A DNA stretch of 64,000 bases from a virus. This document shows positions 18,039 to 51,327 of the stretch, piece after piece. The first letter of the stretch is position 1; every line of letters starts with the position of its first letter. Position numbers and translations under genes: made by a program. The DNA lies in the IMG/VR virus record IMGVR_UViG_3300006097_000019, positions 1 through 64,000 of that record; one strand, 5' to 3'. The notes beneath the pieces are model-generated. The model made no database searches. It saw only the letters and a list, made by a program, of their open reading frames with translations, and was not told the origin of the DNA.

Positions 18039-18176
18039 GAAGAAAAGAAAAGAGAATTTACGAGAAAATTAAATAATGGCACGACTTATTTGCAACATGT
18101 ATATTATCAGATACAAGATAAGGAATTGTGTAAAATTAATAATAAATACGCTGAATAAAATTTATCTTTTATTGCA

Positions 18177-18197
18177 TTAAATATAAAATAATACTTA
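18177..18197 (+). promoter_or_regulatory. recurrent intergenic motif (putative phage promoter)
   Basis: ttaaatataaaataatactta followed by TATAAT. Confidence 0.5.
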
Positions 18198-18217
18198 TAA
18201 TTAGGTGGTGATTTAAT

Positions 18218-25953: not shown

Positions 25954-28397
25954 TTGATAGATTTAAAAAATCTAAAACCAAATGTTCCAAAGGTTAGTTT
26001 GGATCAATATATGTGGTTAATTGCTGGTATGTGGAGTGCCACCCTATAAAGTAATTTATAGGAGAGAAACCTTGCGAAAGGTGAGAAATCCCGAAATTAA
26101 GCGAGAAGCCTAAGTCTTATAAAAAGATATGGCAACTCGAACCGAAGGCTAAATGTAAAAGTTTAGTCAGGGGCAACGCATAGGAAATGAAACTTTGTTT
26201 AAGTTGTTTATTTGAGGTGTTGTTAGATTAAGATTAGCAAAGAAGATTTAAACAATCAATTAAATAAACTGTATAAAACATATAAGCAAATATCACATGA
26301 AACAGGAATTAATATTCATACATTGAAATCTTATGCTAAAAAATATAATATAACTAAACTTAAAGCATGGCAATACTATAATAATATTTATGGCAATAAA
26401 ATAGAAGAAATGTACTGTAGTGGATACTTTCTAAATGATATTAAAAATAAATTTAATTTTAACACTGATTATATAATTGTAAAAATTTTAGAAAGTAGAA
26501 ATATAAAACTTAGAACAGCAAGTGAAAATAAAAAAATTAAAGATATTAGATATATTGATAGCACTAATAATAGAAAATATAAAATTAATCATAATTACTT
26601 TAAACAATGATCTAACAATATGGCATACATTCTAGGTTTTATATATGCAGATGGATGTATTACTAATAATTCTTTAAGGATTGTTATTCAAAAAAAAGAT
26701 AAAAACTTATTAGAGATAATCAAAAAAGAAATTGGTGCTAATACAACAATACATGATGAAGTAAGAACTTTAAATAATAAACAATTCTATTCATCAGCAC
26801 TTATTATTAAAAGCGTAAAAATTATAGAAGATTTAATTAAATTGGGTGTAGTTGAAAATAAAAGTTTAGTTATTCATTTCCCTCAAATACCTAGTGAATA
26901 TATTTTAGATTTTATAAGAGGTTATTTTGATGGTGATGGTAGTGTAGGCATACAATATCCATCCAACTCAAAAGGAGTTAAAACAAGTACAGCACAAATT
27001 AGAACTAGGATTTGTAGTGGTAGCAAAGATTTTTTAGTTGACATGCGTGATATTTTGTTTGATAAATATAATCTTAGAAATGTTACAGTCTATAAGTGTA
27101 AAACTAATCTATATGAAATTGCTTATAGTACTAAAAACTCAATAGAAATTTATAATTTATTCTATCAAAATCCTAAATGTTTATTTTTACAAAGAAAAAA
27201 GGATAGCTTTGATAAATTTATTCAAACTAGAATGAATGATTTAAGAAATAAAACAACAACTTAAACAAAGAATATAATTTTCCCAAGAGGTCGGGACTAC
27301 CTAAAAAGGTAGAAAAAATATGCTGAACTGGATTGGAATTGACCAATCGTAACCTATATGGTGATGAGGGAAACCTCCAGAAATATAGGATAAAAAGCCT
27401 ATATGATAACATTTTGGTTCCAAAAGCTGGTAAAACTAGTTTGTTTGCTAAATTAGTTCAGCAATACTATGGTGATGTATCACAAGGGTTACTTTTGGCA
27501 TTTGAAAAAGGCTATCAAGCATTAACAGTTAATGCAGTTGATATTTCTGATTATGAAAATTTTGAAGAATATGTAGATTATTTAGTAGATAACAAAGAAG
27601 ATTTACCTTTTAAACTTATTGGTATTGATACAGCAGATGTATTATGGGATATGGTACAAGAAGATGTCATTAGAGAATGGAATATTAAAAATCCTAACAA
27701 AAGAACAAATGACATTGGTGGAGTTGGAGCAAAGGGTAAATCTGATAGTGGTTTTGGCGTAGGTTACCAAAGAGCAAAACAAAAAGTAAGAACCCAAATA
27801 GATAAACTAACTAAAGCAGGATATGGATTAATGGTAATTACCCATGACAAAGATAAAGAAGTAGAACAAAGAGATGGGCAAAAATTCGACCAATTAGTAT
27901 GTTCGCTTCCTAATTCTGCAAGAGAAGTATTTGTTAATATGGCAGATTTCATGATATTTATCACAATTGAAAAAGAAAAAGATGGCAATGATGTTATTAC
28001 AAAAAGATATATGCATTTTAGATCAGATGGTTATGTAGATGCAGGTAGTAGATTCCAAAACATGCCACAAAAAATTGAGTATGATATAAATGAATTTATT
28101 ACTGTATTTGAAAATGCTGTCAAGGCAGAACTTGGTGATGTTGATTTAGATAAAAAAAGAAAAGAAGAACAGAGACAGAAAGAAGAAGAAGCCAAGGAAA
28201 ATATTAAAAAAATAAAAGAAGAAATATCATTAGAAGATGCAATTGCTAAAGTAAATAAATTAGCAAAAGAAAAAGTGGCAATAGATAAAGAAAAAGTTTT
28301 AGAAATTATTAAAAATCACCAAGCTAACGGAAATCCTAATTCAATAGAAGATGTTGAAATTGCCAAAAAGATAATTGAAGAATTAAAAAGTATATAA
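25954..28397 (+). CDS. AAA_24 / Sak4-like ATPase, two exons split by a group I intron
   Basis: Exon 1 is 25954-26028 (TTG start, ..YMWLIAG). Exon 2 is 27417-28397 (VPKAGKTSLFAKLV..). Joining them restores Walker A GVPKAGKT. Walker B-like LIGIDTAD is present. Confidence 0.7.
26323..26610 (+). CDS. HTH-like ORF in frame with the downstream LAGLIDADG ORF
   Basis: Separated from the ATG at 26620 only by TGA 26608-26610 plus 3 codons in the same frame. The open frame extends upstream of the TTG (..ISHETGINIHTLKSYAKKYNI). Confidence 0.35.
   Translation: MKSYAKKYNITKLKAWQYYNNIYGNKIEEMYCSGYFLNDIKNKFNFNTDYIIVKILESRNIKLRTASENKKIKDIRYIDSTNNRKYKINHNYFKQ
26620..27264 (+). CDS. double-motif LAGLIDADG homing endonuclease
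   Basis: Motif 1 YILGFIYADGC and motif 2 FIRGYFDGDGSVG. Confidence 0.85.
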   Translation: MAYILGFIYADGCITNNSLRIVIQKKDKNLLEIIKKEIGANTTIHDEVRTLNNKQFYSSALIIKSVKIIEDLIKLGVVENKSLVIHFPQIPSEYILDFIRGYFDGDGSVGIQYPSNSKGVKTSTAQIRTRICSGSKDFLVDMRDILFDKYNLRNVTVYKCKTNLYEIAYSTKNSIEIYNLFYQNPKCLFLQRKKDSFDKFIQTRMNDLRNKTTT

Positions 28398-28931: not shown

Positions 28932-30290
28932 TTGAAAGAAAAACTACCACGTGATATTAATGCAGAATGTGGAATAATTGGCTCATTAATTCTTAAACCA
29001 GAATTTGTTTTACATACGCCTTATTTAAAACCTTTCCACTTTTACGAACATGAAAATGGTTGTATTTTCTGGGCAATAAATGAATTAATGGAAAGTGGAG
29101 TTAATAATATAGATGACTTTAATATTATTACTAAATTAGAAGGAGAACAAAAAGTCAAGAATGTATTTGATAATTTGGATATTCCTTCTATTCAGGATTT
29201 TATAGAAAATGCTAAATATGTAGGAAGAACAACATTAGAAGAATATAAATTATTAGTTGATAGGATAATTAATCTTAGTTATAAACGTAATTTACATAGT
29301 AAATTAAATGATTTAAGTAAACTATGTTTCAATGAAAATATAAATGGACTTAGCGAATTAAATCTTACCGTACAAGAAGAATTAGCAAACTTAGCTGAAA
29401 AATATGTATTAGATAAAAATATTCAAACTCTAGGGGAAAGAATAGATAATATATGGGAAGAAATTCAAGACAGAAGAACAGGTAGTGGTTTATCTGGTTT
29501 CCCATCTAAATATCCTTTAATTAACGAATATTTTACTTATGAAACAGGAGAATTAATAATTATAGGTGGTAGGGCAAAGGCTGGTAAAAGTATTCTTTTA
29601 ATGAATGAAGCAGAACATAAAATTAGAGCAGGAGTTCCTACTGCAATACTAGATACAGAAATGTCTACTCGTCAATGGACTGAGAGATTTTTATCTAAAT
29701 TAACTGGTATTAAAGTAAGAAATATTAAATCTGGCAATTATGGTTCTACAGATGAAAAAATATTAAAAGATGCAATTCAGTGGATTAAAAATCAAAATTT
29801 TGTTCATATTTATGATCCAGATTGGACTAAAGATAAAATTTATACTACTGCTAAAATACTTAAAATAAAAATGGGTTTAGAATTTTTAATATATGATTAT
29901 ATCAAAGTAAATGATAGTTCTAGTTTAAATCAAAAAGAACACAATGTTTTAGGAGATTATGCTAATTTTTTAAAGAATAAAATTGGTGGAGAAATGGACA
30001 TTGCAGTATTATCAGCAGGTCAAATGTCACCATATGACACTAGATTAGCCGATAGTGATAAACTAAATAGATATGCTAGTGTTGTTGCTTATTGGATAAA
30101 AAAAGATGATGAAGAAATTGGAACAGATGGTGAACAAGGAGGAAATTATAAATTAAATATTGATTACAATAGACTAGGTGGACAAATGGAGAAAAATGAA
30201 GCAATATATTTCAATTTTAATGGTGATATAGCAAATATTGAGCAAGCACATTATCAAATGTTGAAAGATACTCCTGAATTTTTGAAATAG
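28932..30290 (+). CDS. dnaB: DnaB-family replicative helicase
   Basis: N-terminal PRDINAECGIIGSLIL (DnaB N-domain signature) and Walker A GGRAKAGKS; TTG start. Confidence 0.85.
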   Translation: MKEKLPRDINAECGIIGSLILKPEFVLHTPYLKPFHFYEHENGCIFWAINELMESGVNNIDDFNIITKLEGEQKVKNVFDNLDIPSIQDFIENAKYVGRTTLEEYKLLVDRIINLSYKRNLHSKLNDLSKLCFNENINGLSELNLTVQEELANLAEKYVLDKNIQTLGERIDNIWEEIQDRRTGSGLSGFPSKYPLINEYFTYETGELIIIGGRAKAGKSILLMNEAEHKIRAGVPTAILDTEMSTRQWTERFLSKLTGIKVRNIKSGNYGSTDEKILKDAIQWIKNQNFVHIYDPDWTKDKIYTTAKILKIKMGLEFLIYDYIKVNDSSSLNQKEHNVLGDYANFLKNKIGGEMDIAVLSAGQMSPYDTRLADSDKLNRYASVVAYWIKKDDEEIGTDGEQGGNYKLNIDYNRLGGQMEKNEAIYFNFNGDIANIEQAHYQMLKDTPEFLK

Positions 30291-30296
30291 AGGTAG

Positions 30297-31325
30297 GTGG
30301 TAAAGCACTTGTTGACACAAAATATAAAGCAAAAATTATTAGAAGAACCTAATTTAATAGTAAAAATACTAGAAGAATTAGGTTGTCATAAAATTAATAA
30401 TAAATACAATGGACAAATTAGAAGTGCTTTACCAGATGGCAATAATCCTACTAGCTTACAAATAATTTTAAATGAAAATTTATCTACTATAATATATTCA
30501 AGAACAGATTGGCAAGGTGGAGATTTGATTTCCCTTATTGAATATTTAAAGGGTTATACATTTACTCAAACTTTACAATGGATATGTAAAATTATTGATA
30601 TAGATTATATATTTGATATTAAAATAAAAGATAAAAAACCATCTGAAACATATAAACTACTCAAGCAATACAATAGATTTAATAAGAATGTTTCTAAAGA
30701 AAAAATAATATTAAACGAAAATGTTTTAAATCAATTTATTAAAAAACCACATGAATTATTTATTAATGATGGTATTTCTATAAAAACACAATATAAATAT
30801 GAAGTGATGTATGATATAGATGATAATAGAATTGTATTTCCCATTAGAGATGATGATGGTAATTTATTATCTGTTAAAGGTAGAAGTTGTATAGATAGCG
30901 ATGATATACCTAAATATATTCATTATTATCCATTATCAATAAAAGATTATTTATTTGGTTTGCATCTAAATTATTGGGAAATTTTAAACAAAAATGAAGT
31001 AATACTATTTGAAGCTGAGAAATCTGTGTTACAATGTGATAGTTTTGGTATAAATAATGCAGTAGCAATAGGTACAAATAAATTAAGTGATGAAAAAATT
31101 AAAAAAATATTAAGTTTAAAATGTGATGTTGTATTTGCTTTTGATAAAGGTATTGAGTTAGAAGAAATGCTAGAACAAGCAAATAAATTTAAAAAGTACA
31201 CTAATATAAAAATAATACTTGACATTAATAACATATTAGAAAATAAGATGTCACCTAGTGATAAAGGAAGAGATGTATTTCTACAGTTATATAATAATAA
31301 AATTAAAGTTGGTGAAGATATTTGA
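30297..31325 (+). CDS. dnaG: TOPRIM-domain DNA primase
   Basis: ILFEAEKSVLQ (TOPRIM Glu) and VVFAFDKG (DxD-like); lies next to the helicase. Confidence 0.6.
   Translation: MVKHLLTQNIKQKLLEEPNLIVKILEELGCHKINNKYNGQIRSALPDGNNPTSLQIILNENLSTIIYSRTDWQGGDLISLIEYLKGYTFTQTLQWICKIIDIDYIFDIKIKDKKPSETYKLLKQYNRFNKNVSKEKIILNENVLNQFIKKPHELFINDGISIKTQYKYEVMYDIDDNRIVFPIRDDDGNLLSVKGRSCIDSDDIPKYIHYYPLSIKDYLFGLHLNYWEILNKNEVILFEAEKSVLQCDSFGINNAVAIGTNKLSDEKIKKILSLKCDVVFAFDKGIELEEMLEQANKFKKYTNIKIILDINNILENKMSPSDKGRDVFLQLYNNKIKVGEDI
31201..31221 (+). promoter_or_regulatory. recurrent motif inside the 3' end of the primase ORF
   Basis: ctaatataaaaataatacttg followed by TTGACA. Confidence 0.45.
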
Positions 31326-32071
31326 CTAAAAAATGGTCATTTAGTAGATTAAATGCTTTTAATACTTGTAAATATATGTTTTACATTACTTATATTGAAG
31401 GAAATAGAGGAGAAGATAATAGTTTTGCTCAATATGGAACATTAGTGCATGATATATTAGAAAAATATGCTACAGGTGAATATTTAATATTTGAGTTAAG
31501 TGATAAATTTATTGATAACTTTAACAAAGTAATAACTTATGATTTTCCACCAAATAAATTTGTAGACTTAAAAGAAAACTATTTTAAACAAGGTAAAGCA
31601 TACTTTGATAACTTTGATGGTTGGGAAATGTATAAAATAATTACTGCTGAAGAAGAAGTTGAATTTAAAATAGATGGTTATAAATTAGGTGGATTTATAG
31701 ATTTACTAGTTAGGAATGTGCTTACAGATGAATTAGAAGTAATAGATCATAAATCTAAGAGTGGTTTTAAAAATAAAGAAGAAAAAAACCATTACTTATT
31801 ACAATTATATTTATACTCTATACCAATCAAAGAGAAATATGGTCAATATCCTAATAAATTAAAGTTTAATATGTTCCGCAAAGGCAAGTGGGAAGAAGAA
31901 GAATTTAAGTATGCTAAACTAGAAATGGCTAAACAATGGGTAATTGATACTATTAAAAACATAGAAAAAGAAACAGAATTTGCTCCAACAAAAGATGATT
32001 TTTTTTGTAAATATTTATGTTCACATAGAAATACTTGCCAATATAATCAGGAGGAATTAGATGTTTGTTAA
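31322..32071 (+). CDS. PD-(D/E)XK nuclease, Cas4/RecB-like with Cys cluster
   Basis: N-terminal WSFSRLNAFNTCKYMF, core GFIDLLV..LEVIDHKS, C-terminal CKYLCSHRNTC (Fe-S type Cys pattern). Confidence 0.7.
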   Translation: MTKKWSFSRLNAFNTCKYMFYITYIEGNRGEDNSFAQYGTLVHDILEKYATGEYLIFELSDKFIDNFNKVITYDFPPNKFVDLKENYFKQGKAYFDNFDGWEMYKIITAEEEVEFKIDGYKLGGFIDLLVRNVLTDELEVIDHKSKSGFKNKEEKNHYLLQLYLYSIPIKEKYGQYPNKLKFNMFRKGKWEEEEFKYAKLEMAKQWVIDTIKNIEKETEFAPTKDDFFCKYLCSHRNTCQYNQEELDVC

Positions 32072-35000
32072 CTTGCATTTGCATAGTTGTTACTCATTAT
32101 TAGATAGTATTGCAAAAATAGATGATGTAGTAAATAAGGTAAAAGAATTAAAACAGCCAGCAGTAGCAATTACAGATCATGGCAATGTTTTTGCTACTGT
32201 TAAGGCTTTTAAAAAGTGTAAAAAAGAAAATATTAAGTTTATATATGGTTGTGAAATGTATATATGTGATGATATGACAATTAAAGATAAGAGCAATAAA
32301 TATTATCACTTAGTTATATTAGCAAAAAACGAACAAGGTAGATTAAATTTAAATAAATTATTATCAAAAAGTCACTTAGAAGGATTTTATTATAAACCTA
32401 GAATTGATTTTGAATTATTAAAACAATATAAAGAAGGATTAATTATTTTATCAGCTTGTATGGCAGGTGAAATACAAAGAAATTTATATAATAATAATTA
32501 TCAAAATGCTAAAGAAATTGCATTAAAATATAAGAATGAATTTCAAGATGATTATTATTTAGAATTTCAAAGTCATAATGATAAAGAACAATTAGAACTT
32601 GCTAAGAAAGTAGTTAGTTTAAGTAAGGAATTAAATATTCCATATGTAGTTACAAGTGATGCTCATTATGTTAATAATCAAGATAAAGAATTACATAGTA
32701 TTTTTGTTCAAATAGGGCAAGAAAGAGAAGTAGGAGAAAGTTATAATGATTGCTATATTCAAAATGAAAATGATGTAGAAAATATTTTAAAAAATACTCT
32801 TACTAAAGATGAAATTAATATTGCTATTAACAATACAATAAAAATTGCCAACAAATGCAATGTTAATATTCCACTATCTCCTCCATTAATACCCCATGTT
32901 GATTTTCCACAAGAATTTAAATCAGAAGAACAATACTTAAAGCATTTATGTGCTATTGGTTGGAAACAAAGAAATATTCACGAGTTACCAAAAGAAAAAC
33001 AAAAAGAATATGAAGATAGATTAAAATATGAGATACATGCAATATCAGAAATGGGATTTGTAGGATATTATTTATTAGTATACAGTTATGCTAATGTAGC
33101 AAGAAGAAGGGGTGTTGCTAGGGGTTCTGGTGGAGGAAGTTTAGTAGCTTATCTTCTTAATATAGTAGATATTGACCCTATTGAATATGGTTTATATTTT
33201 GAAAGGTTTATTGATGTATCAGCATTAGACTTATTAAAAGAAGGGAAAATTAATCCTGAAGAATTAAAAATACCAGACTTTGACCTTGATTTTGGAGAAT
33301 TAGACAGAGAGGAAGTTTTACAATTTATTACTAATAAATATGGAATAGATAAAGTTGCTAGTATAGGGAACTTTCAATATATATGGGATAAGTCTGCAAT
33401 AAAAGATGTAGGAAGAGTATTAAATATCTCATTTGCAGTAACTAATGAAATCACCAATCAATTAAAAGATATGACTATAGATGAAGCATTATCAAGTGGA
33501 ATATTTTCTAAATATGAAAAAGAATATCCTACCTTATTCCACTATGCAAAACAATTAGCAGGGTTGCCTAGAAGTTTTGGTATGCATCCATGTGGTAAAA
33601 TTGTTAGTATTAAAGATTTAGATTATTATACTGCAATTGCAAGTAATAATGAAAATATAGTATATCAAGCAGATATGGATGATATAGAAGATTTAGGATT
33701 GGTTAAAATAGACACATTAGGATTAAGGACAGTTGATGTTATATATAATGTATTAGATATGATAGGAAAAGATTATAATTATATTGCTCCAAAAAATATT
33801 AACTTTAATGATAAAAAAGTATTGGAAGTATTTAAGCATGGTAATACACATGGAATATTCCAATTTGAATCCGATGGAATGAAAGCAACATTGAAACAAA
33901 TTCAACCTAATTCATTAAATGATTTAGCTGTTGCTAATGCTTTATATAGACCTGGAGCAAAAGATTATATTTCTAACTTTGCAAAAAGGAAACATGGTCA
34001 AGAAGAATTTGATTTTTTACACAAAGACTTAGAAGGTATTTTAAATACAACTTATGGAATTATGGTATTCCAAGAACAATTAATTGAAATTGGTAGATTA
34101 GCAGGAATGAGAAATCCTGACGAATTAAGAAAAGCCACAGGCAAAAAGAAACCTGCACTAATGGCAAAAGTAGAACCAGAATTGAAAGAAGGACTGAAAA
34201 AAAGAGGATGGACACAAGAACAAGTAAATAAACTATGGGAAGATATGTTAAAATTTGCTAATTATAGTTTTAATAAATCTCACTCTTATGCTTATTCAAT
34301 TATGGCTTGTATAGTTGCAATGTTAAAGGTGTATCATCCATTAGAATTTATGTGTGCATTGATTAATTCCTATCATGGTAAGCATGATAAAATGCAAGGT
34401 TGTTATCTTGAAGCAAAAAGGTTAAATGTGGAAATAGAATTTCCTAAACTAAAAAACACTTCTAATGTTTGCAGGATAGAAAATAATAAATTAATATATG
34501 GCATTAGTCTAATAAAACATTGTAATAAAAAAAATGCAGATGAATTGTTTGAATTAAGTAAAAGTAACTATAATTCATTCTTAGATTTGCTAATAGATAT
34601 AAAAGATAAAACTTCAGTTAATAGCAGACAATTAGATATACTAATTAAATTAGATTTCTTTAATGAATTTGGTAGTAATAAAAAATTACTAAATTATATT
34701 GAATTGTTTAATCAATTTTATGGTAAAAAACAATTAAAAAAAGATAAAGTAGATTATCATAATATTTTAGTAAATTATGCTAGAGAAACAGAAAAATCAT
34801 TCATGGATTTCCAAAGTTATGATTTTCTTGATTACATGTGGTCTACATTAAAAGAAGAAAAATTATCACCATATGAACAAATTATAAGTGAAATAGAATA
34901 TTTGGGTTATGCAATATCAACTTATCCACAAGATAAAAAAGCTGTTATGGTAATGGAAATAGATACTAAATATACTCCAAAACTACAAATATATGCATTA

Positions 35001-35186
35001 GCAACTGGAAAAACTGAAACTGTTAAAATAAGTAAAAATGAATTTAACTATAAAAATATTAAAGTAGGATCAGTTTTAAAAATAAATAAATTAATCACTA
35101 AACCCAAAAATAGAAAAGTAGATGGTAAATGGGAACAAATTCAAGGAACTAAAGAATATTGGATAAAAAGTTATACAATTTTATAA
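32061..35186 (+). CDS. dnaE: DNA polymerase III alpha subunit (PHP domain)
   Basis: N-terminal PHP motif FVNLHLHSCYSLLDS, ITDHGN, and later GLVKIDTLGL and FNKSHSYAYS. Confidence 0.9.
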   Translation: MFVNLHLHSCYSLLDSIAKIDDVVNKVKELKQPAVAITDHGNVFATVKAFKKCKKENIKFIYGCEMYICDDMTIKDKSNKYYHLVILAKNEQGRLNLNKLLSKSHLEGFYYKPRIDFELLKQYKEGLIILSACMAGEIQRNLYNNNYQNAKEIALKYKNEFQDDYYLEFQSHNDKEQLELAKKVVSLSKELNIPYVVTSDAHYVNNQDKELHSIFVQIGQEREVGESYNDCYIQNENDVENILKNTLTKDEINIAINNTIKIANKCNVNIPLSPPLIPHVDFPQEFKSEEQYLKHLCAIGWKQRNIHELPKEKQKEYEDRLKYEIHAISEMGFVGYYLLVYSYANVARRRGVARGSGGGSLVAYLLNIVDIDPIEYGLYFERFIDVSALDLLKEGKINPEELKIPDFDLDFGELDREEVLQFITNKYGIDKVASIGNFQYIWDKSAIKDVGRVLNISFAVTNEITNQLKDMTIDEALSSGIFSKYEKEYPTLFHYAKQLAGLPRSFGMHPCGKIVSIKDLDYYTAIASNNENIVYQADMDDIEDLGLVKIDTLGLRTVDVIYNVLDMIGKDYNYIAPKNINFNDKKVLEVFKHGNTHGIFQFESDGMKATLKQIQPNSLNDLAVANALYRPGAKDYISNFAKRKHGQEEFDFLHKDLEGILNTTYGIMVFQEQLIEIGRLAGMRNPDELRKATGKKKPALMAKVEPELKEGLKKRGWTQEQVNKLWEDMLKFANYSFNKSHSYAYSIMACIVAMLKVYHPLEFMCALINSYHGKHDKMQGCYLEAKRLNVEIEFPKLKNTSNVCRIENNKLIYGISLIKHCNKKNADELFELSKSNYNSFLDLLIDIKDKTSVNSRQLDILIKLDFFNEFGSNKKLLNYIELFNQFYGKKQLKKDKVDYHNILVNYARETEKSFMDFQSYDFLDYMWSTLKEEKLSPYEQIISEIEYLGYAISTYPQDKKAVMVMEIDTKYTPKLQIYALATGKTETVKISKNEFNYKNIKVGSVLKINKLITKPKNRKVDGKWEQIQGTKEYWIKSYTIL

Positions 35187-36403: not shown

Positions 36404-36706
36404 GTGAAAGATTTGGAGAGTGTTAAATGTTTTGATTGTGGTTACCAGTCGGAAGCTAAATTTAAAGAATGGGATGAAGAAAGTCCTTATGGATGTTGTC
36501 CAAAATGCGGTGCCGATTTTATCCCATCTACAATTGATGTAATAGATATTTTAAAAAGTATGAGTGTGAAAAAAGATGTTGATGGAGCAATATATTTTAT
36601 CTGCCCTGTTTGTAAGACAGAAATATATTGTGAAGATTGGCATAATAACTGGGTAGACCATGATAAAGGTTGTTTTATCGGTGATGTGATAAGGGGCAAT
36701 GTTTAA
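36404..36706 (+). CDS. zinc-ribbon protein
   Basis: CFDCGY..CCPKCG..CPVC; GTG start. Confidence 0.5.
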   Translation: MKDLESVKCFDCGYQSEAKFKEWDEESPYGCCPKCGADFIPSTIDVIDILKSMSVKKDVDGAIYFICPVCKTEIYCEDWHNNWVDHDKGCFIGDVIRGNV

Positions 36707-36945
36707 TGGGAAAGGTTATTGAATTTGCAAAATGTTCTATTTGTTGTAAAAGACCAGCAAAATATCTTTGTGACATGCCTATTGGGATAATTAAGCATAT
36801 GCATCTTACAAAAGATAATAGTTTTAAAGAATATACCATAACCTGTGATAAGCCAATTTGTGAAAAGTGTGCAATAGAAGTAAATAGAGGTATACATTTT
36901 TGCAAAAGATGTTTTGAAAAATTAAAGATATTTCGAAAGGAGTAA
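36706..36945 (+). CDS. zinc-ribbon protein
   Basis: CSICC...CEKC..CKRC. Confidence 0.5.
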   Translation: MGKVIEFAKCSICCKRPAKYLCDMPIGIIKHMHLTKDNSFKEYTITCDKPICEKCAIEVNRGIHFCKRCFEKLKIFRKE

Positions 36946-36949
36946 GATT

Positions 36950-37165
36950 ATGTACTGTGGAGATTTATGCGATGTAAATAAAAATTATGATTGTTGCTAC
37001 TGGTGTGCAGAAGAGCCTGTTTGTAAATATAAATGTAAATATTTAAGAGAAGATGAAGGCAAAAACCCTAGTGAAAATTGTGAAATATATATGCCAGAAA
37101 AAGATGAACATATGCTAGAAGTTGAGGAGCAATATCCACAAGGATATTATAAAACTAGGTTATAA
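36950..37165 (+). CDS. Cys-rich miniprotein
   Basis: YCGDLCDVNKNYDCCYWCAEEPVCKYKCKY. Confidence 0.5.
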   Translation: MYCGDLCDVNKNYDCCYWCAEEPVCKYKCKYLREDEGKNPSENCEIYMPEKDEHMLEVEEQYPQGYYKTRL

Positions 37166-37198
37166 TGTCGCATTTTATAAATAAGGTGAAGGTGAAGA

Positions 37199-37414
37199 TT
37201 GATATACCGAAAGGAGAAAATTATGAACAAGTATATGTCTCAATCAGAAAATGATTTTCAAAATAACTATGCGGAAGGTCAGAATTATAAGTTCAGAAAT
37301 TTGTGCGATACATGTACACAACTAATACCCGAGTGCAATGGCACTAAGATAAAATTTGGGGATGATATTGGCAATGATAATGTAATTGAATGTGATGGCT
37401 ATATAAAATATTAA
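37199..37414 (+). CDS. hypothetical Cys-containing protein
   Basis: 71-aa ORF; an internal ATG at codon 8 is an alternative start. Confidence 0.45.
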   Translation: MIYRKEKIMNKYMSQSENDFQNNYAEGQNYKFRNLCDTCTQLIPECNGTKIKFGDDIGNDNVIECDGYIKY

Positions 37415-38001: not shown

Positions 38002-38020
38002 TGGAAAATAACATATAAAC

Positions 38021-38221
38021 CCATAGCAGAGGGGTTTATACTCTGCTAAAACATCAGGGCTATTAGGTAGTCCTTAAATCCTAGATGAGTAAACATCTAG
38101 TACCCACAGATTTATTAGGGTAGAGAAGTGCTATTCTTTGAAATAGTAACACTCGATAAGGTAAATAAAAAGTCTGTTTTATTTACCACCTCCCGAAAGG
38201 GGCAATCTATAATTTTTACTG
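38021..38221 (+). ncRNA. tracrRNA-like scaffold RNA for the Cas12f-like effector
   Basis: Non-coding and GC-richer than the flanks. Perfect hairpins: agcagag/ctctgct (38025-38047), ctagatg/catctag (38081-38100), ggtaaataaaa/ttttatttacc (38160-38187) and ccc-GAAA-ggg (38192-38201). The 3' end gcaatctat (38202-38210) is complementary to the repeat segment atagattgt. Confidence 0.5.
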
Positions 38222-38327
38222 TTTAAATAAAGATAATTACTAGTAATAGATTGTAAGTCCACCTTGTTTTCGCTCTTTTTTCTTAAATCCTTTTAAATAA
38301 AAATCATCACTAGTAATGGATTGCAAG
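38222..38327 (+). CRISPR. mini-CRISPR array: two 36-bp repeats and one 34-bp spacer
   Basis: R1 is tttaaataaagataattactagtaatagattgtaag (38222-38257). R2 is tttaaataaaaatcatcactagtaatggattgcaag (38292-38327). They share 31 of 36 positions with a 70-bp period. The repeat 3' end ..ATTGCAAG resembles the type V-F repeat end ..ATGCAAC. Confidence 0.6.
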
Positions 38328-38381
38328 ATGTTGACCTAGCTAAAGCAGAATCACCACACCATAGGAGGGTTATTTAATATA

Positions 38382-39674
38382 ATGAGTAATATAATTAAAA
38401 CAATGTCATACGAAATAATAAAACCAGTTGATTGTGATTGGAATACGTTTGGAAAATTATTAAGAGATTTACAATATGAAACTAGAAAAATTTTAAATAA
38501 ATCAATTAGTTTAGCATGGGAATATGATGATTTTGCATCTGATTATAAAAAAATTTTTGGACAATATCTAAAAACAGAAAACATTTTAAATTACAAGACT
38601 ATATTAGGTTATGTTTATGACAGATTAAAAAGTGAATATTATAAATTGAATACTGGAAACTTTACAGAAACCATAAAAAAAGCAACAGATAAATGGAAAA
38701 ACAATAAAATTGAAGTATGGAAAGGTAATGAAAATATTCCTAGCTTTAAAAACAAAAATTCACCTATTGATGTGGTGAAAAAATCAATCCAAGTAATAAA
38801 AGAAGATAATAATTACTATCTAAATTTAAGTTTAATTTCAACTAAATATAAAAAAGAATTAGATAGAAAATCAGGGCAGTTTTTAGTTCTAATCAAGCCA
38901 GGAGATAAAATACAAAGAGTAATTTTGGAAAGAATAATATCTGGAGAATATGATATTGGTACATCTCAAATAGTACAAAAGAAGAATAAATGGTTTGTAA
39001 ATTTAGTATATAAGTTTCAAAAAGAAAAAACCTCTACTTTAAATCAAGACAACATTATGGGTATTGATTTAGGAATTAAAAAAGCATTATATATGTCATT
39101 TAATAATTCAAGAGATAGATATTATATAGATGGAGGTGAGATAGATGATTTTAGGAAGAAAACAGAAAAAAGAAGAAATGAATATTTAAGACAGGGAAAA
39201 TATTGTGCTGATGGAAGAATTGGTCATGGTAGAGAAACTAGAATTAAACCTATACAAAAACTTCAAAATAAGGTTGAGAATTTTAAAAATACTACTAATC
39301 ATAAGTATAGTAGGTATGTAATAGAAATAGCATTAAAGTATAATTGTAAGACAATACAAATGGAAAAATTAGAAGGAATAAATAAAAATAGTGTATTTTT
39401 AAAAAATTGGACTTATTATGATTTACAACAAAAAATTGAATATAAAGCAAGAGAATGTGGTATTGAAATAAAATATATTAATCCAAAATACACTTCTCAG
39501 AGATGTTCAAAATGTGGATATATACATAGTGATAATAGAGAAAATCAAGAGACATTCCATTGTAAGAGTTGTGGATTTAAAACTAATGCTGATTATAATG
39601 CTTCTCAAAATATTGCAACTAAAGATATTGAAGAAATTATTGAAAATACATTAGAAGAATTAAAAGCATCATAA
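38382..39674 (+). CDS. cas12f: Cas12f-like (type V-F) miniature RNA-guided nuclease
   Basis: RuvC-I IMGIDLG (D229), RuvC-II TIQMEKLE (E328), Zn ribbon CSKCG..CKSCG, RuvC-III NADYNASQNIA (D404). From memory it is collinear end to end with AsCas12f1 (422 aa). Confidence 0.8.
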   Translation: MSNIIKTMSYEIIKPVDCDWNTFGKLLRDLQYETRKILNKSISLAWEYDDFASDYKKIFGQYLKTENILNYKTILGYVYDRLKSEYYKLNTGNFTETIKKATDKWKNNKIEVWKGNENIPSFKNKNSPIDVVKKSIQVIKEDNNYYLNLSLISTKYKKELDRKSGQFLVLIKPGDKIQRVILERIISGEYDIGTSQIVQKKNKWFVNLVYKFQKEKTSTLNQDNIMGIDLGIKKALYMSFNNSRDRYYIDGGEIDDFRKKTEKRRNEYLRQGKYCADGRIGHGRETRIKPIQKLQNKVENFKNTTNHKYSRYVIEIALKYNCKTIQMEKLEGINKNSVFLKNWTYYDLQQKIEYKARECGIEIKYINPKYTSQRCSKCGYIHSDNRENQETFHCKSCGFKTNADYNASQNIATKDIEEIIENTLEELKAS

Positions 39675-39888
39675 TTTTAGAAAAGGAGTTTTGAAAAAAT
39701 GTTTAGAGATAAAATTAAAAGTCAAACAGTTTAAATATACCTAAAGTGTTAAAAAACACATTACTGGAAAATGAAGAAGAAAAACACCAAAAAATTTTAA
39801 ATGATTTTCAAAAAGAATTAGATAAACACAAAGAACTAATAAATACTAAAATAGAAAAACAATAAAAATCAAATTTTATCTTAGTGCG

Positions 39889-40190: not shown

Positions 40191-40715
40191 TTGAATTACA
40201 TACTTGGAATTGATCAAGCAACAAGTAAATCAGGATTTGTTGTAATGGATGGAGATTATAAAATTATTGAATATGGTATCATTGACACTACTAATATAGG
40301 AGATACCACTGAATACGGTCATACATTAAAAAGGCAGGAATTAAAGAAAAATATAAAAATGTTACTAGAAAAATATCCTAAAATAATTCAAGTAATATGT
40401 GAAGGAGTTCATCTTAATACTTTTAAAGGTATAGCACAAAAAAACGGAGTTGAAATCTTCAAAAAATTATCAAAAACTCAAGGGACGATTGAAGACATAT
40501 GTTTAGAATTAGAAATATCTTGCTTTACTTTTAATGTTAATTCATGGAGAAGTTATATAGATTATAAATTTGGAAGAAGTAGAGAAGAAATTAAAGATAA
40601 TACTAAAGCATATATAATAGGAAGATATAATTTGCCAGATAATCTTGAGCAAGATATATATGATGCCACAGCAATCTGCGAAGGTTATCTAAATATGATT
40701 AATAAATTCAGTTGA
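40191..40715 (+). CDS. ruvC: RuvC-like Holliday junction resolvase
   Basis: N-terminal YILGIDQATSKSGFVVMD (RuvC ILGIDPG-like, catalytic D) and C-terminal DIYDATAICEGY; TTG start. Confidence 0.7.
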   Translation: MNYILGIDQATSKSGFVVMDGDYKIIEYGIIDTTNIGDTTEYGHTLKRQELKKNIKMLLEKYPKIIQVICEGVHLNTFKGIAQKNGVEIFKKLSKTQGTIEDICLELEISCFTFNVNSWRSYIDYKFGRSREEIKDNTKAYIIGRYNLPDNLEQDIYDATAICEGYLNMINKFS

Positions 40716-40962: not shown

Positions 40963-42615
40963 ATGAAAGAAAGGGTTGTTGCTTATGCTAGAGTTTCGAC
41001 AGACCATGATGACCAATTAAACTCTTTAGAAAACCAAAAACAACATTGGGAAGAATATATTAAATCTAATCCTGAGTGGGAATATTGTGGATTATATTGG
41101 GATGATGAATCTGGTACTAGCACAATTAAAAGAGATGGTTTTAATAAAATGATTGAAGATGCAGAAAACGGTGAATTTGATTTAATAATTACTAAACAAG
41201 CAACCAGGTGGGCAAGAAATGTAGTTGATGCTTTGCAGTATACAAGAAGATTAAAAACAAAAGGGGTTGGTGTTCTTTTTCATGCCGACAATATTCACAC
41301 TATTAAAGATGCTGATGCTGAATTAAGATTATCAATAATGGCAACTTTAGCACAAGAAGACAGTAGAAGAATTTCTGAAAATGTTAAATTTGGACATTTG
41401 AGAGCAATGAAAAATGGAGTTGTGTATGGTGGAAATAGATTATTAGGTTATGATATTAAAAATAAAAAATTATATATAAATGAAAAAGAAGCAGTAATAA
41501 TAAGAGATATTTTCAATTGGTTTGTTTATGAAAAAGAAAGTTTGCATGGTATAGTTAGAAAATTACGAGATAAAGGAATTACAAAAGGGAAAACTGGAGG
41601 AAAAATAGATCACACTACAATAAAAAGAATCTTAGAAAATGAAAAATATTGTGGTGACCTTAAACAAAGAAAATATTATACAGAAGATTTTTTAAATCAA
41701 AAACAAAAACAAAACAATGGAGAAATTGAATTTATTATAATTAAGAATAACCATGAACCTATTATTAATAGAGAAACATGGAATACAGCACAAGAAATTT
41801 TAAAGCAAAGAAGAGTAGAAAGTAAAAGAGGAAATGGATATACAAAACATTGTTGGGGAGGTAAAATAATTTGTCCTGAATGTGGAAATAAATTTAGAAG
41901 AAAAGTTTTAAAAAACAAAGATGGTACTGATAGACCAATTTGGATATGTATTAATTATCATAATAATGGTAAAAAAGGATGTGAAAATTCAAGTTATTTA
42001 AGAGAAGATGTGTTAAACGATACTTTTCAAGTTGTAATTAAAAAACTTAAACAAAAATCAAATCAAGATAGAATTATTAAGAATTTAAATAATATACTAG
42101 GCGAATTGCTTGAAAAAGACAATTCTAATGAAAAAATAGAAAAAATTAATAAATCTATTAATAAAATAAAAAACAAAAGAGAAAAATTGTTAGAACTATA
42201 TATGGAAAGCAATTTAACAAAAGAAGTTTTTACTGAAAAAAATGATAAATTAAACATGGAAGAAGAAAATTTATTAAATAAGAAAAATATGATAGAACAA
42301 GCCAAAAATAAATTAGAAAATCAAAAACAAGATATATTAGATTTGTATGAAGTGATAAAAAATAAACCAGACAACTTAAAAAATATTGATGATTTTGTAA
42401 ACAGACATATTAAAGAAATAATTAAACACAAAGATAAACTTTCGTTTGTATTAAAAACGGGAGAAAAAATAGATGCAGATTTATCTAAATATCCAAAAAG
42501 GATTTGTAGTAGAGATTACATCACTATAATGGATATTAAGGTTTTGCAATTAATTAATAGAGGGGCAGTACAATATTACGAAGAAATAGGTGTGGAAGTA
42601 TTACTTGTAGCATAA
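40963..42615 (+). CDS. large serine recombinase (phage integrase type)
   Basis: Resolvase catalytic domain VVAYARVSTDHDDQLNSLENQ (Ser12), recombinase domain, Zn ribbon CPECGN..CINYH..C, and a long coiled-coil. Confidence 0.9.
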   Translation: MKERVVAYARVSTDHDDQLNSLENQKQHWEEYIKSNPEWEYCGLYWDDESGTSTIKRDGFNKMIEDAENGEFDLIITKQATRWARNVVDALQYTRRLKTKGVGVLFHADNIHTIKDADAELRLSIMATLAQEDSRRISENVKFGHLRAMKNGVVYGGNRLLGYDIKNKKLYINEKEAVIIRDIFNWFVYEKESLHGIVRKLRDKGITKGKTGGKIDHTTIKRILENEKYCGDLKQRKYYTEDFLNQKQKQNNGEIEFIIIKNNHEPIINRETWNTAQEILKQRRVESKRGNGYTKHCWGGKIICPECGNKFRRKVLKNKDGTDRPIWICINYHNNGKKGCENSSYLREDVLNDTFQVVIKKLKQKSNQDRIIKNLNNILGELLEKDNSNEKIEKINKSINKIKNKREKLLELYMESNLTKEVFTEKNDKLNMEEENLLNKKNMIEQAKNKLENQKQDILDLYEVIKNKPDNLKNIDDFVNRHIKEIIKHKDKLSFVLKTGEKIDADLSKYPKRICSRDYITIMDIKVLQLINRGAVQYYEEIGVEVLLVA

Positions 42616-43002: not shown

Positions 43003-43683
43003 TTAATTTTCCTCCTTATTTTCTAATTTCTTAAAATATTCTAAAATACCTAACTTAGTTGCGTAAGCACAAATTAATCTGAATTTTTCATTTAATAATA
43101 AAGTTTCTTCATTTGGATTGGTATGGTATCCATATTCAACAATACATGCTGGTGTATCAGAATATCTTAACACACCATAATAATCATCATTGCCTTTTGA
43201 ATTTAATCTACTTCTTGCAAATCTTCTTTTTCTACCACATATTTTATGAACACTATTTAAAACACATTCAGCGAGCAATTTACTCTCATTGTAAGGGTCA
43301 ATAGAATAATAAGTTTCTATACCTTGAACATCGTTATTATTAGGCATAGCATTGGTATGAAGAGAAATAAATATATCAGCATCATTTTCATTTGCAATTT
43401 GTCCACGTTCATATAAAGTTAAATATTCATCTTTGTCTCTTGTTAATATTACATTTGCTCCTAATTCTTTTAGCATAGGTTTTAATTTTAATGCTATATC
43501 TAAAACTCCATCGGCTTCTATATATCCATTTTGACCACGATTATATCTATCAGAACCACCATGACCTGGGTCAAGTACGATAGTTTTATTTTCTAAAGGT
43601 AAGCCTCCTATATAAACACTATCATCTACAAGAAAACCATCTGATATTTGCCTACCAGCGATAAAAACCTTTACGCTCCTCAA
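43003..43683 (-). CDS. N-acetylmuramoyl-L-alanine amidase endolysin (Amidase_3)
   Basis: IVLDPGHGGSDRYNRG, ADIFISLHTNA, VEYGYHTN (Zn ligands H/E/H pattern). Confidence 0.85.
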   Translation of the reverse strand: MRSVKVFIAGRQISDGFLVDDSVYIGGLPLENKTIVLDPGHGGSDRYNRGQNGYIEADGVLDIALKLKPMLKELGANVILTRDKDEYLTLYERGQIANENDADIFISLHTNAMPNNNDVQGIETYYSIDPYNESKLLAECVLNSVHKICGRKRRFARSRLNSKGNDDYYGVLRYSDTPACIVEYGYHTNPNEETLLLNEKFRLICAYATKLGILEYFKKLENKEEN

Positions 43684-48684: not shown

Positions 48685-51327
48685 TTACAATCCTCTATTA
48701 GTAAATTGTTGTTCTACCCATCCTCTAGTTGCGACTAAGTTGTCTGTAATTGCAGAAAGTCCAATAAATACATCGCCATCTAAAAAAATATCATCATTGC
48801 AACTTATAGTTATATCATAACCATTGCTTTCGATATAAGCAGACGAATCATTTCTTATATTAAAATCACTACAATTATAAACATTAAAACCACTGTTAGC
48901 ACAATTAATATTCAATCCTGTTCCAGCACCAACATGTGACAATTCAGTATGTACAAATCTTATTAGACTGGTTTCAAAATCTATACTATATGCACCAGTT
49001 AAATATGTTGAACCACCAACAGAACCTAACTCAACCCCATCAGACCATTTTCCTAAATAATCAGCATTTATTTTTACTTGGTTATCTATAGTTTGTAAAA
49101 TATCAGTGCCATCTAATATTAATTCGTTACAAATTATCTTACCTTCAATAGTTAAATTGCCACTTGTATCAGCATATAATTTTTTACTAGTCCAACCATC
49201 ATTAGTTGTATTTCTAACACCTATAGTTATACCTTCTGTAGCATTTAACATAGTAGTTATTCCATTATCGCCACTAACAGTAATTCCATTAGTTGTATCA
49301 ATTTTTACACCATTGTATAAAGTATTTTTCTGAATAGAATTATTCCATTTATTAACTGATGTAGAATTGATTTGGCTTTCAGGCAATCCATTTGTAATTG
49401 TTAATGAAGCACCTGCAATAGTAACTCCATTACCATCAACAGAAAAAGAACCACTGTCATTAACAATGGTTAAATTATTACCTGCAATTATTTCACCTAT
49501 TAATTTTTCAGCATATACTCCTGAACTATCAATCGCTACGCCAAAAGTATTTCCTCCATCTTGTGTTAAACCAATAACTCCATTCGTCATTCTTATATAT
49601 TTCAAAGGATCGGCACTGTTTGATATCGTAACTCCACGTTCATTAACTGTTACACTATTATTTACACCTGAAATTATTTCTCTTTTAGCACTATCCCATG
49701 TATTATTTAAAATAGTAGAAACTTCATTACTTGTGCTAAATGCTGTTTGCCATTTAAACTTATTCATATCAACAATAGAAGAAGTGGATATCACATTATA
49801 AAATTCTTTCAAAAAATCATCATCGTCAGTTTTTATATCTTTTGTATTTGCAATAGTCAAATTAATATCTGCATTTTCAAAATTATAATATATTTCAATT
49901 ATTTTAGTAGAAATATTTATGTTTAATTTGTCATATTGGACATTTATAATGTCTCCTAATTGTAATTTATCCCAATTTAATTGTTCTTCAATTATTTCTA
50001 AAAAATTCACAATATCTAATTCAAATATAATTTGTGGTTCACGTATATCTTGAAATGTTTCAATAGCTTTATTATATAATTCTTTATCATCATAAATATT
50101 TTCATTAGACCATTCTTTTTCAATAATAAACTGATTTCTTTCAACTATTTGTTCAGGTGTAAAATTATTTTCTATAGATATTTCATTTTGTAATGTAGTT
50201 ATTTGACTATCGATATTAGAAATATCATTTTCAACTGAAGTAATTTCAGATTCTTTATTTGCTATTTCATTTTCTTTATTTTGTAAATCAATCTTTAATT
50301 GTTCTTCATCCCCTACACCTGTTGATTGAGCAATGTCTAAATTATCTTGTATTACTGCCAATTCAGTTTCTAAAGTAGATAATTCATTTTCTTTAGTTGT
50401 TAAAGTATTTTGTAAAGTTTCTTTTTGTGTGAGTAAAGCATCAAAATCACCTTTTTTTGTTTCTAACAAATCATTGTAGACAATAATTGCTTTACATAAT
50501 CCATCGGACATATAATCTGAATGTTTTATGATATTTCCATCTACATCTTCTTCATAAGGATGTATGAAATAAGTAAAATCTTCAATATAATTAGTGCCAG
50601 TAGGATTAACACGTTGAATACTTAATTCATCCTTACCAAAAACTTTTAATCTAGTAACCATTTCATCGACACTAGATATTTTATTTAAAGATTTTAGATA
50701 TTTTCCATAGTTGATTTTAAATCCTCTATCAATCCCCACATTATCAGATTTATAAAAACTAATAGTACGATTAAGAGTATCCCATACTACTAAAGCATTA
50801 AATGTTTCTGCAATTTGATAAACAAAATCTAATAATGTAGCATTAGATACATTAAATGAGCGATACATAATATCAAAATCTGCATCAATATAATCAATAG
50901 TCCATATACTTGAAGATAATACTTCAGTTAATACTTGTGTGGCATTATAAGAGGTAACACTATAATCTCTAATTAATTTATCCCGCAATTCATAACCAAG
51001 GCTAAAAGTATGAACTTCTTTATTATCGTTATCTTCATTCATATTGTCTATTAATTCATTTATAATGAACCATTCAGTATAATTTCCTAAAACTAATTTA
51101 ATTAAATACCGTTCTTTGAGTTTATTGATATTATCATTAAATTTTAATTCATGATTTATTTCAATTTCATAAGGCAAGGAAAAAGACAGCTCATTGAGCT
51201 GTCTTAAACTTAATTTTAAATTTATATCAAAACTTTCATTTAATTTACCAATTATTTCTTTATTTGGTTTACACAAAAATAACTGTGGTTTTTGAGGTTT
51301 TAAATTTAAATCAATATCTAAAAACAA
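48685..51327 (-). CDS. tail-associated lysin-like / baseplate hub protein (Tal)
   Basis: 880 aa immediately after Dit; central coiled-coil; position typical of the siphophage Tal / prophage tail endopeptidase family. Confidence 0.55.
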   Translation of the reverse strand: MFLDIDLNLKPQKPQLFLCKPNKEIIGKLNESFDINLKLSLRQLNELSFSLPYEIEINHELKFNDNINKLKERYLIKLVLGNYTEWFIINELIDNMNEDNDNKEVHTFSLGYELRDKLIRDYSVTSYNATQVLTEVLSSSIWTIDYIDADFDIMYRSFNVSNATLLDFVYQIAETFNALVVWDTLNRTISFYKSDNVGIDRGFKINYGKYLKSLNKISSVDEMVTRLKVFGKDELSIQRVNPTGTNYIEDFTYFIHPYEEDVDGNIIKHSDYMSDGLCKAIIVYNDLLETKKGDFDALLTQKETLQNTLTTKENELSTLETELAVIQDNLDIAQSTGVGDEEQLKIDLQNKENEIANKESEITSVENDISNIDSQITTLQNEISIENNFTPEQIVERNQFIIEKEWSNENIYDDKELYNKAIETFQDIREPQIIFELDIVNFLEIIEEQLNWDKLQLGDIINVQYDKLNINISTKIIEIYYNFENADINLTIANTKDIKTDDDDFLKEFYNVISTSSIVDMNKFKWQTAFSTSNEVSTILNNTWDSAKREIISGVNNSVTVNERGVTISNSADPLKYIRMTNGVIGLTQDGGNTFGVAIDSSGVYAEKLIGEIIAGNNLTIVNDSGSFSVDGNGVTIAGASLTITNGLPESQINSTSVNKWNNSIQKNTLYNGVKIDTTNGITVSGDNGITTMLNATEGITIGVRNTTNDGWTSKKLYADTSGNLTIEGKIICNELILDGTDILQTIDNQVKINADYLGKWSDGVELGSVGGSTYLTGAYSIDFETSLIRFVHTELSHVGAGTGLNINCANSGFNVYNCSDFNIRNDSSAYIESNGYDITISCNDDIFLDGDVFIGLSAITDNLVATRGWVEQQFTNRGL

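Follow-up and report, generated by a model that had tools for sequence, protein, structure and literature searches.

A type V-F Cas12f effector of a phage, with a guide-RNA locus of its own and without a neighbouring adaptation module

The window analysed here, a stretch of 64,000 nucleotides (nt) of virus DNA (positions 1 to 64,000 of IMG/VR record IMGVR_UViG_3300006097_000019), holds a phage-borne gene for a Cas12f effector of type V-F. A guide-RNA locus of its own accompanies the gene, and no adaptation module was found close by. This identity, put forward in a first-pass annotation made from the sequence alone, is supported by the homology and intact active site of the protein, by the anatomy of a trans-activating RNA (tracrRNA) and an array of short palindromic repeats, clustered and regularly interspaced (CRISPR), as well as by the phage context. 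At a probability of roughly 60%, these elements would form a complete minimal cassette of type V-F1 (V-U3, AsCas12f1 clade) that a temperate-type phage of ~108 kb and ~26% guanine plus cytosine (G+C) uses against competitors. The features of the locus, all on the + strand, are listed below.

38024..38048, +, hairpin AGCAGAG-GGGTTTATA-CTCTGCT ahead of the tracrRNA core, predicted in both folds
38054..38222, +, tracrRNA core, single full-length match of covariance model R1, E 3.5e-8
38203..38220, +, anti-repeat: CAATCTAT at 38203-38210, a 5-nt bulge, TTACT at 38216-38220
38222..38257, +, CRISPR repeat 1, 36 nt, TTTAAATAAAGATAATTACTAGTAATAGATTGTAAG
38258..38291, +, spacer 1, 34 nt, TCCACCTTGTTTTCGCTCTTTTTTCTTAAATCCT, between the two repeats; the sole true spacer
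38292..38327, +, CRISPR repeat 2, terminal, 5 mismatches to repeat 1
38328..38381, +, cas12f leader with the ribosome-binding site (RBS) AGGAGGG at 38363-38369, read directly
38382..39674, +, cas12f, 430 amino acids (aa), AsCas12f1 clade of type V-F1/V-U3, from the open reading frame (ORF), family models and alignments
39066-39068, +, GAT, RuvC-I D229 within IMGIDLG
39363-39365, +, GAA, RuvC-II E328 within TIQMEKLE
39504-39572, +, CCCC zinc ribbon C375/C378/C394/C397
39591-39593, +, GAT, RuvC-III D404 within NADYNAS

The Cas12f protein and its upstream RNA

The 430-aa ORF and its catalytic residues lie exactly at the coordinates of the first-pass annotation, which had ascribed to the product the catalytic layout of TnpB and Cas12 nucleases. 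The D/E/D triad and the four zinc-ribbon cysteines align in 28 sequences, the closest database relatives, and all 7 residues are invariant. Five AsCas12f1 entries (8j3r, 8j12, 8j1j, 8dzj, 7wju) top the phmmer list against all PDB chains with E values of 1e-132 to 1e-134, while Cas-phi reaches only 1e-3. The alignment with AsCas12f1 is collinear (residues 3-423 versus 10-430) and displays all four pairs of matching peptides that the annotation had listed. BLASTP with the protein of Sulfoacidibacillus thermotolerans Y002 (locus L011), which is identical in reading to the PDB AsCas12f1 chain in both alignments, finds 48% of 428 aa identical and 73% positive. In a neighbour-joining tree the window Cas12f falls in the subclade that contains this protein, with contig L001 as its neighbour and L184 likewise among the nearest proteins; phage and bacterial members, the As protein included, are interleaved there. 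The Cas12f family is large: of the candidates scored, 1144 proteins reach E <= 1e-30, and the closest is only 61% identical to that of the window.

An ordinary TnpB of the IS200/IS605 family with its omega-RNA, forming a transposon inside the phage, is a highly improbable reading of this gene. Pfam and PHROG do label the family OrfB_IS605 or transposase, and public records annotate homologues as transposase. The protein scores 82 bits with Pfam Cas12f1-like_TNB (cut-off 26.3) and 191 bits with NCBIfam guided_TnpB, but only 53 bits with NCBIfam IS200_TnpB (cut-off 425) and 49 bits with IS607_TnpB (cut-off 350), and its best matches are the CRISPR-associated Cas12f1 structures. Its guide RNA lies 5' of the gene as a tracrRNA plus repeats, and the 3' flank (39560-39800) shows no unusual structure (z = +1.2). 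No tnpA was found among the ORFs scanned, a scan that was not exhaustive, and the window has no second copy of the gene. The TnpB transposon was rejected on the unstructured 3' flank, the 5' position of the scaffold, the family scores below cut-off and the single copy.

The G+C content of cas12f (23.7%) is that of the phage (26.6% in the window) and the identical protein is on record for 3 contigs, the longest of 107,584 bp. The gene is thus a resident of a real phage, and the same two observations rule out an assembly chimera.

The 380 nt 5' of cas12f hold no credible ORF. The structured RNA claimed there, upstream of the gene and on the same strand, is borne out by its folding and by homology. 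Segments 38005-38260 and 38020-38291 fold better than shuffled sequences (z = -4.6 and -3.8, respectively). Covariance model R1 draws on 21 tracrRNA regions, all from loci outside the window; searched against both strands, it yields one match in the whole 64 kb, the tracrRNA core at 38054-38222. No Rfam family matches the upstream RNA. The motif CTCGRTAAGGT with GAGAAG ahead of it (GAGAAG..CTCGRTAAGGTA) adjoins a cas12f homologue in ~30 fetched loci, including L011, where it corresponds to the AsCas12f1 tracrRNA region. An alignment of 19 tracrRNA regions, that of the AsCas12f1 source organism among them, has 19 invariant columns and compensatory changes in 13 of the 13 predicted pairs of two helices.

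In the tracrRNA core, stem 1 is followed by CCTTAAATCC, the two-hairpin insertion by GAGAAGTG and the variable stem by ACACTCGATAAGGTA, after which come a further stem, the hairpin CCTCCC-GAAA-GGGG and the anti-repeat. The insertion of ~40 nt is common only to the window and L001. The hairpin at 38024-38048 may be the 5' end of the tracrRNA. The -10-like sequence TATAAA at 38014-38019 is, by inference only, a putative promoter; modules 1 and 3 of L001 (see below) have a hairpin at the equivalent position with a TATAAT-like box ahead.

The repeats were also correctly placed upstream on the same strand by the first-pass annotation. They are two 36-nt direct repeats around a 34-nt spacer, 86% identical, with a period of 70 nt (65-70 nt in relatives), and no further copy is found anywhere in the window. 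Together with the protein matches and the folding, this goes far past what chance would produce. Their 3' end, ..GATTGTAAG, resembles the ..AAGATGTAAG, ..AGTTGCAAG and ..GATGTGAAG of relatives. Repeat 1 begins one base past the tracrRNA, so that the anti-repeat duplex can form in cis, and the cis duplex with repeat 1 is present in the minimum free energy folds. The anti-repeat pairs with AGTAATAGATTG of repeat 1 (38242-38253); an A-to-G change in this segment of repeat 2 keeps the pairing through one G-U. The anti-repeat:repeat pairing, with 14 bp, has RNAduplex energies of -10.8 and -12.2 kcal/mol, and the cognate pairing ranked first in 7 of the 10 loci submitted to the duplex test. The cas12f leader comes directly after repeat 2 and is therefore formally a terminal pseudo-spacer.

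Phage surroundings and relatives of the cassette

The window is clearly phage DNA, with structural and replication genes on both sides of the cassette. The gene calls below come from PHROG matches.

13144-14970, ribonucleotide reductase
28932-30290, DnaB helicase
30297-31325, primase
31322-32071, PD-(D/E)XK exonuclease
32061-35186, PolIII-alpha-like DNA polymerase, E about 1e-297
40191-40715, RuvC-like resolvase
40963-42615, large serine integrase
43003-43683, endolysin
48685-51327, minor tail protein, E 1e-242
52130-56011, tape measure protein, E 1e-150
61798-62595, virion protein

ClpP, an AAA_24 protein, a LAGLIDADG endonuclease and a tyrosine recombinase are also encoded. The phage has two integrase types, the large serine integrase and the tyrosine recombinase (59383-60351, - strand). 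Another carrier of a Cas12f locus, Alicyclobacillus phage MMB025, integrates into sigK. Homing-endonuclease-type genes (LAGLIDADG, Vsr/DUF559-like) lie in or near replication modules, at 26620-27264 and 12178-12957 in the window and, in viral contig L184, as a LAGLIDADG gene (17933-18463) between the PD-(D/E)XK gene and the polymerase gene. Four consecutive Cys-rich (CxxC) ORFs of 71-100 aa are found just 5' of the cassette (36404-37414) and have weak matches only, to PHROGs of unknown function. A 448-aa protein with many zinc-ribbon-like CxxC/CxxxC repeats (56506-57852, - strand) adjoins the tape-measure gene.

Neither the ORFs next to the cassette nor ten window ORFs of Cas1 size gave a Cas1 or Cas2 match; small ORFs were scanned in part, and ~43 kb of the phage lie outside the window. 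The sole PD-(D/E)XK protein sits in the replication module. The absence of tnpA, cas1 and cas2 stressed in the first-pass annotation thus holds for the ORFs scanned, but the lack of adaptation genes is no special trait of this locus. The V-U3 lineage as a whole is devoid of cas1, cas2 and cas4 (PMC7229846), so that a missing module is the norm of the family, and PMC12607003 describes adaptation genes as almost universally missing in CRISPR-encoding phages.

The upstream position of the RNA had been likened to that in CRISPR-associated Cas12f loci generally, a comparison that does not hold. AsCas12f1, whose published locus has the tracrRNA between gene and array (PMC8548392), and most bacterial relatives have their RNA downstream of cas12f. 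In these bacterial genomes and metagenome-assembled genomes, tracrRNA and array follow the gene and the arrays can be long: L011 has at least 18 repeat pairs and L016 at least 20. The phage-borne relatives are the ones with RNA upstream or on both sides.

IMG/VR has about 20 contigs with full-length Cas12f homologues (38-56% identity). The loci examined there feature a tracrRNA and small arrays of 2-6 repeats positioned upstream, downstream or on both sides of the gene. Two of the three nearest relatives whose context was inspected have phage-type surroundings (L001 and L184), the third, P0004, being encoded among ordinary bacterial genes. The L001 protein (P0002, 61% identity) is found among small ORFs, an RNA ligase, a methyltransferase, a helix-turn-helix protein and a sigma factor. 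L184 (P0018, 59%) and the window share the gene order DnaB-primase-PD-(D/E)XK-polymerase, with aa identities of 30-47%, but the L184 cassette is at another genome position. In L183 (P0011, 55-56% identical) the gene is inside the tail module.

The number of RNA modules per cas12f gene varies. L001, a phage-like 10-kb contig, has one cas12f and three tracrRNA-plus-mini-array modules with three different repeats:

2499-2980, L001 module 1
4298-4800, L001 module 2
5613-6085, L001 module 3

Two modules each are present in L086/L183, L037, L184 and MMB025. In L184 a second tracrRNA (11301-11480; R1, E 1e-22) lies 3' of cas12f and is followed by one repeat-like end, ..ATATAAGATGTAAG, and then by unique sequence, which reads as a natural one-guide arrangement.

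The arrangement of a repeat followed by an RBS is found in L001 and L086 as well as in the window. Terminal repeats of phage-borne loci lie 11-54 nt ahead of the next start codon with the RBS in between, the gene leader being formally a spacer. The genes that follow are cas12f and also unrelated methyltransferase and S-layer homology protein genes. The junctions between terminal repeat and gene are as follows.

38327-38382, window
2973-2998 and 4793-4807, L001
7956-7989 and 9632-9643, L086

Homologues annotated as "transposase" (40-43% identity) are also present in two cultured phages:

3298-5341, Alicyclobacillus phage MMB025 (L186, PV686781.1), 105 kb, CDS0149 "transposase"
3700-5296, Bacillus phage Mgbh1 (L187, KU665491.1), 59 kb, gp53

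MMB025 has two tandem tracrRNA-plus-array modules directly 5' of cas12f; one of the arrays is annotated as CRISPR and the tracrRNA is recognised by R1. In Mgbh1, two repeats precede the gene, and its compact tracrRNA was read by eye and gives no R1 match. The papers on MMB025 mention neither CRISPR nor the transposase. With homologous loci in many IMG/VR contigs and in two cultured phages, the locus is not of an undescribed kind.

Spacers, targets and proposed function

Spacer 1 starts with TCCACCTTGTTTTCGCTCTT... and in the window matches only the array itself, both with up to 3 mismatches and in an ungapped scan against shuffled controls. Searches of INPHARED phages gave partial, sub-significant matches only and those of plasmids gave nothing. 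An exact scan of IMG/VR with nt 1-20 of the spacer found one contig family (L174-L179, viral contigs of 44% G+C) with a match of 22 nt (nt 1-22; 4423-4444 in L174) flanked by ACCG. The matching part is the PAM-proximal end of the spacer (PAM, protospacer-adjacent motif), and in these contigs it falls where two minus-strand ORFs meet, of which one looks methyltransferase-like by inspection. One such family is close to the chance expectation for a 20-mer scan of a collection of the size of IMG/VR and the match is therefore probably fortuitous. The scan with nt 15-34 gave one partial match, attributed to chance. The pseudo-spacer provided by the cas12f leader matches its own locus only.

The 29 spacers of relatives gave a single phage match and none to plasmids. 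The spacer of L089 at 9787-9818, compared with the Geobacillus phages NIIg9.7, PT9.1, PK3.5 and PK3.6, matches Geobacillus siphoviruses at 30 of 32 positions, and the flank on the 5' side is TTTA. Variation among these phages affects the PAM and the first four positions, the seed region, of this protospacer, in which PK3.5 and PK3.6 differ. L089 is a provirus from IMG/VR, and its Cas12f forms a tight cluster with the Thermaerobacillus caldiproteolyticus protein (L007). In L001, the first spacer of module 2 (4662-4696) has 33 nt identical to the RBS and start of ORF 6239 (6233-6266) on the same contig. The genomic copy has TTTG ahead and differs at spacer positions 1-2, which makes two seed mismatches; it may be either a protected self copy of a spacer directed against relatives or a duplication junction. 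Both TTTA and TTTG fit 5'-YTTN, the PAM of AsCas12f1 (PMC8548392). The spacers of MMB025 and Mgbh1 match their own genomes only. Taken for the relatives, and not for the window, the L089 and L001 matches, along with the spacer differences described next, suggest DNA targeting of phages.

L001, L002 and L003 encode identical Cas12f proteins and differ in the tracrRNA-proximal spacers of the arrays upstream and downstream of the gene, while the distal spacer and the terminal repeat are common to the three; L003 has 5 spacers and L001 has 2. Polarised gain or loss of spacers would be expected to leave such a pattern. Such spacer turnover would occur with no cas1 or cas2 nearby.

By analogy, the most likely function of the window cassette would be the guided cleavage of competing mobile DNA. 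AsCas12f1 cuts double-stranded DNA, blocks plasmids, dimerises on one guide and has a tracrRNA of 169 nt (PMC7229846, PMC8548392). In the phage, a single transcription unit on the + strand is expected to contain a tracrRNA of ~170-200 nt, the two-repeat array and the cas12f mRNA. The anti-repeat would pair in cis with the 3' half of repeat 1, giving a natural single-guide-like RNA. A Cas12f homodimer would bind this RNA, as in the solved AsCas12f1 complexes, and the complex would cut double-stranded DNA beside a 5' T-rich PAM where roughly nt 1-20 of spacer 1 find a match. The phage would in this way eliminate another phage or a plasmid that competes with it inside the host cell; it might instead exclude superinfecting relatives or cut a host locus.

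Several observations weigh against such a role. No credible target of spacer 1 emerged from the window, phage, plasmid or IMG/VR collections, nor did a single-protein scan of IMG/VR yield a variant of the window phage, whose exact Cas12f is also absent from the gene-position index. A consensus scan, judged uninformative, gave no sigma-70 promoter near 38014-38048 and neither promoter nor terminator between array and cas12f. The near-invariant CAAAAACCG-loop stem of relatives is missing in the window tracrRNA, where the short CCTCCC-GAAA-GGGG hairpin is found instead. Being short and AT-rich, the duplex of anti-repeat and repeat is weak and hardly stands out from pairings with non-cognate repeats. 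The locus has a single real spacer and its second repeat is 14% diverged, so that the array could be static or decaying.

These features could also belong to a passenger, recently captured from a host or another phage or in decay, with no current function for the phage. Besides the pair of repeats of only 86% identity, the absence of a target for spacer 1, the truncated tracrRNA stem and the weak duplex, such a view draws on the different genome positions of the cassette in the related phages L184 and the window, which mark it as mobile and accessory. However, the 430-aa ORF is uninterrupted and has every family-invariant residue, its G+C content is fully phage-like and the covariance match of the tracrRNA is still E 3.5e-8. 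Phage-borne relatives as a rule have small arrays, and a diverged terminal repeat is normal in CRISPR arrays. A passenger is thus considered unlikely.

A domesticated device with a fixed guide is also unlikely, if slightly less so. Cas12f would be directed by an invariant spacer, or by the leader acting as a guide, to bind DNA instead of destroying it and so autoregulate its own expression or control a phage or host gene. The terminal repeat placed directly ahead of the next gene's RBS in the window, L001 and L086 would suit such regulation, and so would the L184 tracrRNA followed by a solitary repeat end, which implies a fixed guide. The L001 spacer that corresponds to the RBS and start of a gene on the same contig, and the single spacer of the window with no adaptation genes, point the same way. 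Against this, the RuvC triad is intact and invariant, unlike that of the nuclease-dead TnpB-derived RNA-guided transcription factors (10.1101/2023.11.30.569447) and of Cas12m (PMC11013384), the pseudo-spacer matches only its own locus, where the repeat fills the PAM position, and spacers turn over in relatives. A nuclease-dead regulator comparable to the TnpB-derived transcription factors, Cas12m or Cas12k was rejected on account of the intact D229, E328 and D404.

A more doubtful proposal treats the phage cassettes of this subclade as modular units made of one cas12f and one to three modules whose built-in guides serve homing or exclusion, in likeness to TnpB-assisted transposon retention. 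The terminal repeat of each module would be fused to the RBS of the next gene and the leader of that gene would be the guide. In a related phage that lacks the module the start of the gene would be cut, and repair from the carrier would copy the module in; the carrier's own site would be protected because the repeat replaces the PAM. The window has one module only, and its built-in guide would be its own cas12f leader. When the leaders next to the terminal repeats of L001 and L086 were sought by exact scanning, nothing or self only was found.

The RNAs could act mainly on a Cas12f encoded by the host, the mini-array exploiting it or the repeat and tracrRNA serving as decoy, with the phage gene secondary. 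There are documented cases of viral mini-arrays and solitary repeat units by which host systems are used or inhibited (PMC11656645), and bacterial members of the clade occur in Bacilli and Clostridia. The phage nevertheless encodes its own complete effector and a cognate tracrRNA, and the exact repeat pattern is found in no other genome: scans of IMG/VR and metagenomes gave single chance matches only, with no Cas12f nearby. An action on host Cas12f is accordingly improbable, and cleavage of rival DNA by the phage's own effector stays the preferred reading.

Comparison with known systems

The locus belongs to a family characterised in bacteria and seen in virus surveys, and is not unprecedented. 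Three aspects are mildly new: the recurrent phage architecture in which tracrRNA and mini-array lie upstream and continue into the leader of the gene, relatives having as many as three modules for one gene; a tracrRNA scaffold that is divergent; and the presence of the same locus, unrecognised, in cultured phages. Its occurrence in MMB025 and Mgbh1 makes the biology testable there. The AsCas12f1/V-U3 lineage, the best-studied lineage of miniature editors, is thus not only bacterial. It is also in circulation among large phages of Firmicutes, in the form of a small mobile cassette made up of a tracrRNA, cas12f and a mini-array with 1-5 spacers. This supports the view of phages armed with minimal RNA-guided nucleases against rivals and does not overturn current understanding. 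AsCas12f1 and SpCas12f1 work best at 45-55 °C, so that a 430-aa orthologue from a probably mesophilic phage of 26% G+C, with a naturally rearranged guide scaffold, could be useful.

The closest characterised system is AsCas12f1 of V-F1/V-U3 (Acidibacillus sulfuroxidans / Sulfoacidibacillus thermotolerans Y002; PDB 8j12, 8j3r, 7wju, 8dzj), 48% identical and collinear over the whole length. The two share the RuvC triad and zinc ribbon, a similar size (430 aa in the window and 422 in As), a long tracrRNA that is homologous and contains the GAGAAG..CTCGRTAAGGTA core, repeats of 36 nt whose 3' ends are related, and the lack of cas1, cas2 and cas4. The window locus is phage-carried, while the As locus was described from a bacterial chromosome. 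Its tracrRNA and array are upstream and feed into the cas12f leader, those of As being downstream, and it has one spacer where the As locus (L011) has at least 18 repeat pairs. The window tracrRNA is set apart by its insertion of 40 nt with two hairpins and by a penultimate stem that is shortened. With its 24% G+C, the window locus probably comes from a mesophilic, AT-rich Firmicute.

MMB025 and Mgbh1 resemble the window in having tracrRNA, mini-array(s) of 2-3 repeats and cas12f on one strand, beside replication or accessory genes in phage genomes of 59-105 kb. They differ in their repeats and in a protein identity of only 40-43%, and MMB025 has two tandem modules. L001 has the tracrRNA insertion in common with the window and is distinguished by its three modules and three repeats. 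L184 has a syntenic replication module, while it carries two RNA modules, one with a solitary repeat, and its cassette is located elsewhere.

Cas-phi/Cas12j, Cas-lambda, Cas12 hacker and Cas12r likewise combine a hypercompact RuvC effector and a small array in a phage with no adaptation genes, but they are other protein families than the window Cas12f. Cas-phi works without a tracrRNA. Cas12 hacker forms a heterodimer with host thioredoxin, unlike the presumed homodimer of Cas12f. Cas-phi, Cas-lambda, Cas12 hacker and Cas12r are among the characterised phage families of miniature Cas12 (10.1101/2025.01.20.633832). Papers on compact type V effectors of phages presume their use against rival nucleic acids (10.1101/2025.01.20.633832; PMC12607003; PMC12141684; 10.64898/2026.04.20.719267), and PMC12607003 reports hypercompact type V effectors as enriched in phages, with viral effectors near V-F1/V-U3. 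Subtype V-F is reported to be enriched on plasmids (PMC11656645).

Virus-borne mini-arrays and solitary repeat units (PMC11656645) provide the last comparison. Like the window locus they have one or two spacers in a viral genome, and, as in the relatives of the window locus, the spacers match related or other phages. They depend on host Cas proteins, in contrast to the window phage, which encodes the effector and the tracrRNA beside its array.

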